From Escherichia phage ID2 Moscow/ID/2001, in sequence record NC_007817.1: a stretch of DNA of 5,486 nt. One strand, written 5' to 3'. The stretch's first letter is position 1; every line of letters starts with the position of its first letter. Positions 62 through 5,486 of the stretch are shown here, piece by piece. The translations under genes and the position numbers were made by a program. The notes beneath the pieces are model-generated. The model worked only from the letters and a program-made list of their open reading frames with translations, was not told where the DNA came from and made no database searches.

Positions 62-1723
62 ATGCAACAAGCTAGTGACTTCTACAACAAACCACATATC
101 GACGCTATCAAACCACTCGTTGAAACCGCTGGTATGTCTGTGCTTTCTCAATCTCCAAACCTCCGTATCTGGAAACAGGTAAATTCCCGTATCAAACTAT
201 TGGAAGAAATCCTTGCTCATTACACCAATGGCATCCGCCGTGATGACAACGGCGACTTCTGGATGAATCCCAATTCTCAACTCGCAACCACAATTGCCTA
301 TCGTGCCCATCAAAAAGGACACAACCCAAAACTCATTCAATACCCTGATACATTCACTCTGGATGACATCATCCGTAAAAAGCCATTACCACAAAACGCT
401 CCTGACGAATTAAAACTCTCCGATGAAATCGGGGAAGACTATCGCCTTACAATCATCTCTCTAATCGAAGAAATGCAAGAAATCTACGACGTGCTCGGAC
501 AACTTGATATTAATAACACTATAGACCACAAACCTATCGGTAACGCCCACTGGAATCTACTCTATGAAAAACCTGTATATAAACACTGGTATGAACTGGT
601 ATCAAAACGACCCCTTAAATCAATCAGAGACGACTACAACTATGCAAAGGCTAAGGGTATTAAGGATGAATGCTCGAAAATCCTTGAGGAATCCACCATG
701 AAATCACGTAGAGGCTTTACCGTACAAAGACTAATGAATGCTATGCGCACTGCCCACACTGAGGGCTGGTACGTTGTATTCGATACTCTTACTCTCGCCG
801 ATGACCGCCTTAAGGATTTCTATGATAATCCCAATGCTCTCCGTGACTATTTCCGTGATATTGGTCGTATGGTTCTCACTGCCGAGGGTCGTTCTGTCCA
901 TGATTCATCTTCGGACTGCTATCAGTATTTTTGTGTGCCTGAGTATGGCACCCAGCACGGCCGTTTACATTTTCACGCAGTGCACCTTATGCGCACACTT
1001 CCTCTGGGTTCTATCGACCCTAACTTTGGCAAGCTGGTGCGTACTAATCGGCAAATAAATAGCTTGCAAAATACATGGCCCTATGGTTACTCTATGCCCA
1101 TCGCGGTCCGGTACTCCCAAGACGCATTTTCGCGCGCTGGCTGGCTCTGGCCCGTTGATACAAAGGGCGAACCTCTTAAAGCTACCTCGTATATGGCTGT
1201 CGGCTTCTACGTCGCTAAATACGTTAACAAAAAATCAGATATTGACATGGCCTCTAAAGGTCTAGGGAATAAAGAATGGAACAATTCACTCAAAACCAAA
1301 ATCAACCTGCTGCCCAAGAAAATTTTTCGCATCAGGATGTCTCGCAACTTCGGAATGAAGCTGCACACAATGAGTCACCTCTCAGCGGAAACTCTAATCC
1401 AACTGACCCAAGTGGGCTACGACGTGACCCCGTTCAACAACATCTTGAAGCAGAACGCCAAGAAAGAGCTACGATTGAGGCTGGCAAAGAAATCTGTCGC
1501 CGACGTTTTGGAGGCGCAACCTGTGACGACCAATCTGCTAAAATTCATGCGCAATTTGACCCGTCAAATCGGAGTGTCCAACCTGCAGAGTTTTATCGCT
1601 TCAATGACAACGAAATTAACAAGTATGGATATTTCTGATGAAACCAAAAACTACGTTGATACTGCAGGAATTACTGCTACTCACTTACGAATTAAATCGA
1701 AGTGGACTGCTGGTGGAAAATGA
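62..1723 (+). CDS. A: Replication initiation protein A (HUH rolling-circle endonuclease). Start at ATG 62 preferred; the longest ORF begins at ATG 32.
   Basis: ORF 32..1723 (563 aa). It carries the HUH motif HFHAV (H at 968-970 and 974-976) and the catalytic tyrosine pair in YVAKYVNK (Y codons 1208-1210 and 1220-1222), both as in phiX174 gpA from memory. The C-terminal ~340 aa align closely with phiX174 A. ATG 62 has a GGAGG Shine-Dalgarno at 48-52 with 9-nt spacing; ATG 32 has no recognisable SD. Confidence 0.85.
500..529 (+). other. Viral (+) strand origin of rolling-circle replication, conserved 30-nt gpA recognition/nick site
   Basis: CAACTTGATATTAATAACACTATAGACCAC at 500-529 is, from memory, identical to the phiX174 30-nt origin. 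The expected gpA nick is between G506 and A507. It lies inside gene A, as in phiX174. Confidence 0.85.
698..1723 (+). CDS. A*: A* protein, in-frame internal initiation within gene A
   Basis: In-frame ATG at 698 begins MKSRRGF, the same residues that begin phiX174 A* as I recall it. GAGGA SD at 686-690 with 7-nt spacing. Product 341 aa, sharing the A stop. Confidence 0.6.
1276..1638 (+). CDS. B: Internal scaffolding protein B, overprinted inside gene A in another frame
   Basis: 120-aa ORF, the same length as phiX174 B. Shares the conserved C-terminal block [10 protein letters not shown]...QPAEFYRF...GYF with phiX174 B from memory. AGGGA SD at 1264-1268, 7 nt upstream of the ATG. Confidence 0.9.
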
Positions 1724-3829: not shown

Positions 3830-3840
3830 AGCCTATAACG

Positions 3841-3878
3841 TGACAGGGGGAAAAATTTTAATTTTTCGCCCCCTGTCA
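3841..3878 (+). repeat. Extended inverted repeat/hairpin in the F-G intergenic spacer; candidate complementary-strand origin and/or T_F terminator
   Basis: TGACAGGGGG (3841-3850) is the perfect reverse complement of CCCCCTGTCA (3869-3878). The 18-nt AT-rich interior (AAAAATTTTAATTTTTCG) can itself pair AAAAATT with AATTTTT. It is the only long perfect stem in the window and sits in the 99-nt F-G spacer. Confidence 0.6.
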
Positions 3879-3928
3879 GGTTGAACAAGCGCAAGCGCGT
3901 TAGCTGCCTAACTTAAAAGGAAATTCAA

Positions 3929-4468
3929 ATGTTTCAGAAATTCATCAAAAAACATAACGCTCCGTTAACTTCTCAGCCCGCTATCTCTAAGGCTGTTACT
4001 CCATCTATGACCGCCGCCCCTCTTGTCACTACACCTCTCGGCGTGTCTTCTACTCAATTATTCTTGGAACTTACAACCACTGCCGCCGCTGGCGGCTTCG
4101 CTTACGCTATCCGCGTAGACAATTCTAACCCTACTGATAATCAGGTCTTCTCCGTCTGTGCTCACATCACATCTGACGTGGACCCTAAATATATTGCGTG
4201 CCTCGTTCGCTTTGAGGTCACTGCTGGTACCACTCCTACCGCTATGCCTCCTGTCTATGATGCTTACCCTATCGCTGGTTACTATGACGCTGGCTCTTAT
4301 ACTGTTGAAGACTGCGCTACTATTCCTACTCACGCTGTCTCTTCTGGCAACGATGTATATGTCGGCCTTATGCTTTTCTCTCGCATGTGGCCCGTTGCAA
4401 AACTATCCGGTATCGCTTCCCTTAATCAGGTAAACAAGGAAGTAACCGTTCTCCAACCTCTTAAATAA
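3929..4468 (+). CDS. G: Major spike protein G
   Basis: 179-aa ORF in the canonical position after F (phiX174 G is about 175 aa). AAGGA SD at 3917-3921 with 7-nt spacing. Ser/Thr/Ala-rich composition typical of the beta-barrel spike protein. Confidence 0.9.
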
Positions 4469-4478
4469 GGTATTCTCT

Positions 4479-5486
4479 ATGTTTGGTGCAATCGCTGGCG
4501 GTATCGCCTCATCTCTTGCTGGCGGACTCATCAACAAAGCCTTTGGGGGCGGTCAATCCGCCTCCTCTACTGGCGTTCAAGGTGATGTCCTCGCTTCTGA
4601 CAATAACGTAATCGGTGCTAATGATGCTGGTATCAAATCCGCTATTCAAGGCTCTAATCCACCCAATGGCCAACAAGCTGCTCCCAATGCTATTTCGGGC
4701 GTTCTCGCTGACACTGGCAAAGACGCCCTATCTTCAATCACTGGCGCTGGCGTTAATAAACTTATGGAAAAAATCGGACTATCTAAAACTGCTGCTGATA
4801 AAGGCAAGGACACAAAGGATTATCTTGCTTCTGCATTCCCCGACCTCAACCCGTGGGAACGTGCTGGCGCTGGTGCTTCGTCTGCTGGCATGGTTGACGC
4901 TGGCTTCCAAAACCAAAAAGAATTAACCCGCATGCAGCTTGACAATCAAAAAGAAATCGCTAAGATGCAAAACGACACACAAAAGGATATCGCTGGTATC
5001 CAATCTGTCACATCCCGGCAAAATACTAAGGATGCTGTCTATGCTCAAAACGAGATGCTCGAATATAACCAAAAAGAATCTATGTCACGCGTTGGCTCTA
5101 TTCTCGAAAACACAAGCCTCACCAAACAACAACAAACTTCTGAAATTATGCGGCAGATGCTTACTCAAGCTCAAACCGCAGGTCAACATTTTACAAATGA
5201 CCAAATCAAAGAACTTACACGAAAAGTTGGTGCTGATATTGATTCTGTCCGCGCTAACACTGACCGTACACATGTAGAAACTCAACGCTCAAAACAGGAA
5301 GTTCAAAACTCTCGTTATGCTTCCTCACAAGTCGGTAAAACCGCTAAGGATGTCTCTAATGCAGTTACTGATACAGCTAGTTCTATTGTTGATTATTTTC
5401 GTGGTATTGATAACAAAGTGGCAGACGCTTATAACAACTATTTCAAAGATGGTAAATCCGACGGAATCGGGTCGAACATCAAATAA
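4479..5486 (+). CDS. H: Minor spike / DNA pilot protein H
   Basis: 335-aa ORF (phiX174 H is about 328 aa). Gly-rich hydrophobic N-terminus [25 protein letters not shown] followed by a long Gln/Lys-rich, coiled-coil-like region. TAAGG SD at 4466-4470 overlaps the G stop. The ORF stops on the last base of the window. Confidence 0.9.

Follow-up and report, generated by a model that had tools for sequence, protein, structure and literature searches.

The 30 nucleotides at positions 500 to 529 of the window, by which we mean the whole 5486-nt stretch of DNA analysed here, are almost certainly the viral (+) strand origin of a G4-like Bullavirinae phage, judging from sequence comparison. They match the 30-mer CAACTTGATATTAATAACACTATAGACCAC on the + strand with 0 mismatches, and the identical 30-mer lies at 4299-4328 of phiX174 (NC_001422), whose record places its rep_origin feature (“origin of viral strand synthesis”) at 4306. 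In phiX174-like phages this is the well-established place where rolling-circle copying begins and ends. A preliminary description of this DNA had proposed that the 30-nt origin is conserved base for base with phiX174, and all 30 of the 30 positions agree. The properties that characterize a phiX174-type origin occur here together: the consensus itself, a location within gene A on the + strand, a single copy, and gpA motifs encoded in cis, along with a DNA constraint that overrides codon degeneracy, an AT-rich centre, and no need of a hairpin. We found no evidence contradicting this reading. An origin of this type is already known and is ordinary for the virus group, and no new biology is implied by it.

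The window holds one complete genome of the circular type, that of a G4-like microvirus (Bullavirinae, Gequatrovirus). In megablast searches the Enterobacteria phages FL76 and FL68 (Gequatrovirus talmos) were 97.7% identical over 100% of the window, ID204 was 96.2% identical over 91% of it, and ID18/WA14 and the G4-group phages matched it at about 85%. The gene order A/A*/B/K/C/D/E/J/F/G/H is that of FL76, coordinate for coordinate. The GenBank records of FL76, ID204, ID18, and G4 contain no viral-strand origin feature, the only rep_origin in the G4 record being that of the complementary strand.

Gene A and the predicted origin

Gene A extends from 62 to 1723 on the + strand, following the FL76 coordinates, and encodes gpA, the HUH replication-initiation endonuclease (Pfam PF05840, Phage_GPA, E = 9e-59). 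The longest gene A open reading frame starts at ATG 32 (563 amino acids); ATG 62 is the likelier start in view of how FL76 is annotated and of the GGAGG found at 48-52. In G4 and ID18 gene A starts at 59, with different N-termini. The HUH metal-binding motif H303-F304-H305 (968-976, + strand) is equivalent to His263/His265 of phiX174, and the catalytic tyrosine pair Y383-V-A-K-Y387 (1208-1222, + strand) is equivalent to its Tyr343/Tyr347, residues that are essential in phiX174 (bioRxiv 10.64898/2026.07.25.740675). Conservation of both motifs is complete across the alignment: HFH (amino acids 303-305) is kept in all aligned gpA proteins, including those of phiX174, G4, and alpha3, and the tyrosine motif is kept as Y-V-[AT]-K-Y in every one. 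Numbering of the window gpA equals that of phiX174 plus 40 (Q107 becomes Q147, H263/H265 become H303/H305, and Y343/Y347 become Y383/Y387) because of an insertion upstream of the origin. At approximately 270-400 of the window (gpA residues ~70-115), G4-like gpA carries about 40 extra residues that are lacking in phiX174 and alpha3. The N-terminal third is the least conserved part of gpA. By sequence, no relative of gpA with a solved structure was found in the PDB.

In the gene A frame the 30-mer reads CAA CTT GAT ATT AAT AAC ACT ATA GAC CAC and encodes gpA residues 147-156, numbered from ATG 62; the peptide takes the form QLD(I/N)(N/S)NTIDH. The preliminary description had stated that the origin codes for A residues, and both the frame and the peptide context are as it gave them. 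A location of the origin inside gene A, and a gpA that acts in cis, have been described before (PMC3606162, 2013 PLoS One). The site is upstream of the start of A* (698-1723, + strand), an internal in-frame start beginning MKSRRGF for which the records of FL76, G4, and ID204 give identical coordinates, and so the A* mRNA and protein lack the origin codons.

The 30-mer is present in a single copy. It is the sole match to CAACTTGATATTAATAACACTATAGACCAC in the window when up to 3 mismatches are allowed, and none of 200 shuffled sequences gave any match at that threshold. The nick-proximal decamer occurs exactly once in the window, and the 4 matches found to it at 2 mismatches compare with 5.4 expected; secondary recognition sites for gpA or A* elsewhere in the window were not found beyond chance. 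In composition, 500-529 is 70% A+T, and the AT-rich core of the origin at 507-522 (+ strand), which is 87.5% A+T, holds the only naturally variable positions, 510 (T/A) and 513 (A/G). No hairpin is predicted at 470-560, where the DNA minimum free energy is −2.5 kcal/mol (z = +0.93), a value equalled or bettered by 168 of 200 shuffles. Scanning 400-650 gave no sigma-70-like or terminator-like site, and no Rfam family matched at the origin region. An AT-rich core that comes without hairpin, promoter, terminator, or Rfam match fits an origin of the phiX type, in which the duplex is melted, and not one of the stem-loop kind.

The predicted site of nicking and religation by gpA is 506-507 on the + strand, between G506 and A507, mapped from G4305/A4306 of phiX174; the alignment is exact, so that the 506/507 coordinates proposed earlier stand as the mapping of phiX174 4305/4306. 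Cleavage and religation at G4305/A4306 occur within the 30-nt ori+ of phiX174, and an AlphaFold 3 model, offered as a hypothesis, has gpA unwinding the AT-rich part of the duplex origin (bioRxiv 10.64898/2026.07.25.740675). By homology with phiX174 we infer binding, melting, the nick position (G7/A8 of the 30-mer), a covalent 5'-phosphotyrosyl intermediate, and termination in the phage studied here. In such a scheme gpA, encoded by the gene that contains the site (62-1723), would bind the supercoiled replicative form at the 30-bp origin and melt its AT-rich centre, after which Y383 or Y387, with Mg2+ bound by the HUH residues H303/H305, would cut the + strand between G506 and A507 and leave gpA joined covalently to the 5' phosphate of A507. 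The 3'-OH of G506 would then prime host Pol III while the Rep helicase unwinds the duplex. After one round the second tyrosine would cut the regenerated origin and the displaced strand would be ligated into a circle, so that the same site would start and end each round. A full-text literature search returned no paper that prints the 30-mer or its first 12 bases. Classical work by Baas, Jansz, and Fluit is said to have split the origin into recognition, spacer, and key or binding parts.

Constraint on the origin DNA

Identity was computed on a protein-guided codon alignment of gene A, with flanks of 20 codons per side, and the origin appears in it as an island. Against phiX174 the origin is identical at 30/30 positions, the flanks at 46.5%, and the whole of gene A at 70.3%; against alpha3 the values are 28/30, 36.4%, and 55.5%. 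A third comparison was with IMGVR_UViG_3300005306_000004 (L016/L027), a 5241-nt metagenomic Bullavirinae-like genome whose gpA is 52% identical to that of the window, and here the origin is again identical at 30/30, with flanks at 48.4% and the whole gene at 57.9%. The preliminary description had the surrounding A coding sequence diverged, which is true against phiX174, alpha3, and L016 (flanks 36-48%) and not against G4, where the flanks are 85% identical; the contrast between island and flanks is visible only in between-genus comparisons. L016 carries the exact 30-mer plus one preceding base, and may stand for a lineage that belongs to none of the three classical genera.

The edges of the island are sharp at 500 and 529, and the divergent flanks begin at the very next base. 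When positions 380-650 of the window were searched by sensitive blastn, only 462-529 could be aligned with phiX174-group records, the alignment ending at the 3' edge of the origin, and exactly 500-529 could be aligned with alpha3-group records. When every 30-nt stretch of gene A was ranked, the origin came out on top in the comparison with alpha3; in that with L016 one shifted stretch (499-528) had the same top score, and in that with phiX174 one further block (914-948) was equally perfect. In the genomes as a whole, only two exact runs shared with phiX174 are longer than the one at the origin, and none shared with L016 is.

Codon usage within the island indicates which molecule is under constraint. 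We considered alignment columns with a conserved, degenerate amino acid in the window, phiX174, alpha3, and L016. The codon is identical in all four lineages in 8 of 8 such columns of the origin, compared with 22 of 124 (17.7%) elsewhere in gene A; the naive P for 8/8 is ~1e-6, a value that gives scale only since it ignores shared ancestry and codon adjacency. With the window, phiX174, and L016 only, 10 of 10 codons are identical (naive P 5e-6, which likewise ignores shared ancestry and codon adjacency). The sole natural substitutions, those of the alpha3 type, are both non-synonymous, ATT to AAT (I to N) and AAT to AGT (N to S). In phiX174, a saturation-mutagenesis preprint reports detrimental synonymous mutations at nine of ten homologous A-protein codons (Q107-D115), colocalised with ori+ (bioRxiv 10.64898/2026.07.25.740675). 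The DNA is the constrained object, because synonymous sites are frozen, the natural changes are non-synonymous, and no other ORF of at least 30 amino acids overlaps the site. Constraint on the DNA clearly dominates, and constraint on the peptide has little evidence since both natural changes alter the protein. A dual constraint, on the encoded residues and on the cis site, had been proposed for this stretch; the term can stand, with its DNA half, upheld by the 8 frozen codons, outweighing the peptide half.

Two other ways of accounting for the frozen sequence deserve comment. In one, selection acts at the protein level only, on an essential gpA peptide, and the identity of the DNA is a by-product. 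The peptide is indeed kept in gpA of the phiX174, G4, and L016 types, and its position within an otherwise poorly conserved N-terminal third calls for some local constraint, but such selection would leave synonymous sites free, contrary to the codon counts above, and the alpha3-type changes from I to N and from N to S are the reverse of what it predicts. Synonymous mutations in these very codons are also detrimental in phiX174 (bioRxiv 10.64898/2026.07.25.740675). With synonymous sites frozen and every natural variant non-synonymous, selection on the peptide only is already largely refuted and extremely unlikely. In the other, a different signal overlaps the site, whether promoter, terminator, structured RNA, or an ORF in another frame. 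The A+T content of the 30-mer and above all of 507-522 is promoter-like, yet the scan of 400-650 for promoter and terminator sites and the Rfam search were negative, folding was no better than in shuffles, and the annotated transcription starts of phiX174 lie at 3962 and 4899, away from 4299-4328. The gene A ORF is the only one of at least 30 amino acids that covers 500-529, and the other frames across the origin carry stops (TGA at 505-507 and TAA at 511-513). We regard the chance that an overlapping signal explains the island as close to nil.

Long-term selection on the origin DNA also agrees with the alleles found in nature. The 30-mer is carried over at least 80% of its length by 573 phage records. 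Alpha3, St-1, phiK, WA13, and ID32 carry CAACTTGATAATAGTAACACTATAGACCAC, with 2 differences at the equivalents of window positions 510 (T to A) and 513 (A to G). A pattern with the 7 central bases left free matched 19 IMG/VR contigs, and when these were pooled with other fetched loci, 34 occurrences fell into two alleles only (the phiX/G4 type 16 times, the alpha3 type 18 times). Leaving the 10 central bases free gave 68 metagenome stretches with 82 occurrences and the same two alleles only (78 and 4, respectively), 74 of the 82 having phiX174’s own flanks and thus being spike-in DNA. One metagenome contig, FUFK010037421.1 (327,964 nt; loci L037-L103), has dozens of origin matches at an exact spacing of 5386 nt, with phiX174 flanks; it is a concatemer-like assembly of the phiX174 sequencing spike-in and no natural element. 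The pattern scans demanded exact outer arms, and arm variants would escape them. A locus search based on gpA, which is free of this arm bias, gave 5 loci in which the site is present, and the 30-mer is exact in each of them; a sixth locus was cut upstream of the site. In the phage records, IMG/VR, and the metagenomes scanned, there are two origin alleles only.

Recombination and mosaic ancestry

Rather than long-term purifying selection, the shared 30-mer could in principle reflect a short patch passed on recently, by horizontal transfer or by gene conversion, at a hotspot of recombination, the origin serving mainly as a junction at which co-infecting genomes are joined. Several observations lean this way. 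In the triplet of window, G4, and ID18, affinity flips at the origin, with 52 G4-like to 12 ID18-like sites over 101-500 and 8 to 27 over 501-700, and the best single breakpoint in gene A for the same triplet brackets 478-535. A scan of 13 G4-like genomes for discontinuities between left and right distance matrices peaks locally at 510, and in geminiviruses the virion-strand origin is known as a hotspot of recombination (PMC3174254). The peak at 510, however, is only the 8th strongest of about 10, with 8-10% of genome positions scoring as high; 15 alpha3-like genomes, taken as an independent set, give no enrichment at the origin, its score being reached by 17% of positions; and there are many other switch points in the genome. 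Transfer also fails to explain why the same 30-mer, set between divergent flanks, is common to all lineages even where gpA identity falls to 52%, and any clustering of breakpoints would follow from the origin function and would not compete with it as an explanation. Taken jointly, patch transfer and a primary role as junction are very unlikely explanations of the island. A recombination hotspot at the origin is unsupported, the peak at 510 being weak and unreplicated in the alpha3-like genomes. That the invariant 30-mer is, in addition to its role as origin, a preferred junction for recombination between lineages also seems unlikely; such a junction might arise through strand joining by gpA or through replication restart at the nick during co-infection, and has a known counterpart in the virion-strand origin of geminiviruses.

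Ancestry of the window with respect to the G4 and ID18 clades is mosaic, both within 60-1729 and genome-wide. G4-like stretches include sites 101-500 and 1100-1400, ID18-like stretches include 501-700 and 900-1100, and 4600-5000 is strongly ID18-like. Overall, the window, G4, and ID18 clades are approximately equidistant (536/406/411 informative sites).

Other parts of the genome show features of their own. The longest exact run genome-wide, exceeding that of the origin, lies in the overlap of genes D and E, in the E transmembrane segment, where 68 nt at 2166-2233 are identical to phiX174 588-655 and 62 nt at 2172-2233 are common to the window, alpha3, and St-1; only 15 nt of it are left in the divergent contig L016. 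This run probably results from the constraint of coding in two frames. In the J-F spacer, a GGGGC-TTCG-GCCCC hairpin followed by a T-rich tract can be read directly from the sequence at 2514-2534, and resembles the terminator of transcription called T_J in phiX-like phages.

The complementary-strand origin of G4 (G4 3884-4019, with its primer at 3970-3997) left no trace anywhere in the window. The F-G spacer of the window (3830-3928) cannot be aligned to it and is homologous to the phiX174 F-G spacer: both spacers keep the loop AAAAATTTTAATTTTT and, downstream, GGTTGA.CAAGCG.AAGCGCG.TAG, with changes on both sides of the stem. The hairpin of this spacer at 3837-3882 is strong (−20.7 kcal/mol, z = −4.4), and the homologous phiX174 hairpin is described as the T_F terminator, which overlaps ori(-) and a PriA site (bioRxiv 10.64898/2026.07.25.740675). 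With a phiX174-like F-G spacer present and the G4 origin absent, this G4-like phage may have a phiX174-type, primosome-dependent complementary-strand origin.

Comparison with other origins

Alignment with the reference origins, which the preliminary description had put forward as a check, gave identity with phiX174 and G4 and 28/30 with alpha3, where the nick-proximal decamer is intact. The ori(+) of phiX174 shares all 30 bases, the strand, and the gene A reading frame with the site in the window, and it is placed alike relative to the catalytic motifs; the enzyme motifs of gpA are themselves alike, their numbering offset by exactly +40. The two phages differ in the flanking gene A sequence, which is approximately 46% identical, in the ~40 extra N-terminal residues that the window gpA has upstream of the origin, and in the residue that follows the origin, K in the window phage and R in phiX174.

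G4 (NC_001420) has the identical 30-mer at identical genome coordinates, 500-529, inside a 47-nt exact run common with the window (488-534). The organisation of the two genomes is the same at genus level and gene A is 87% identical, with no difference in the origin, whereas the region of the complementary-strand origin in the F-G spacer is not common to both. The ori(+) of the alpha3/St-1/phiK type (Alphatrevirus), which begins CAACTTGATAATAGTAAC, shares 28 of 30 bases with the window: the nick-proximal decamer CAACTTGATA and the 3' 16-mer TAACACTATAGACCAC are identical, and both substitutions (T510A and A513G) fall in the AT-rich centre, giving the peptide QLDNSNTIDH.

In the stem-loop origins of other HUH-Rep systems, namely the nonanucleotide of geminiviruses and circoviruses and the origins of RCR plasmids, the nick site lies in the loop of a conserved hairpin. 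The site in the window has no predicted hairpin, and so its predicted nick is not placed in a hairpin loop as in the nonanucleotide-type class; unlike those origins, it sits inside the coding sequence of its own initiator. What the two kinds of origin would share is the chemistry, the site-specific cutting of one strand by an HUH/Tyr nickase at a point that serves for initiation and for termination.

The feature at 500-529 and the predicted nick at 506/507 can be added by homology to the nearest GenBank records. The origin of this phage is a clean textbook case of a cis-acting DNA signal inside the coding sequence of the enzyme that acts on that signal, with synonymous sites frozen across lineages whose gpA has diverged to about 50% identity.
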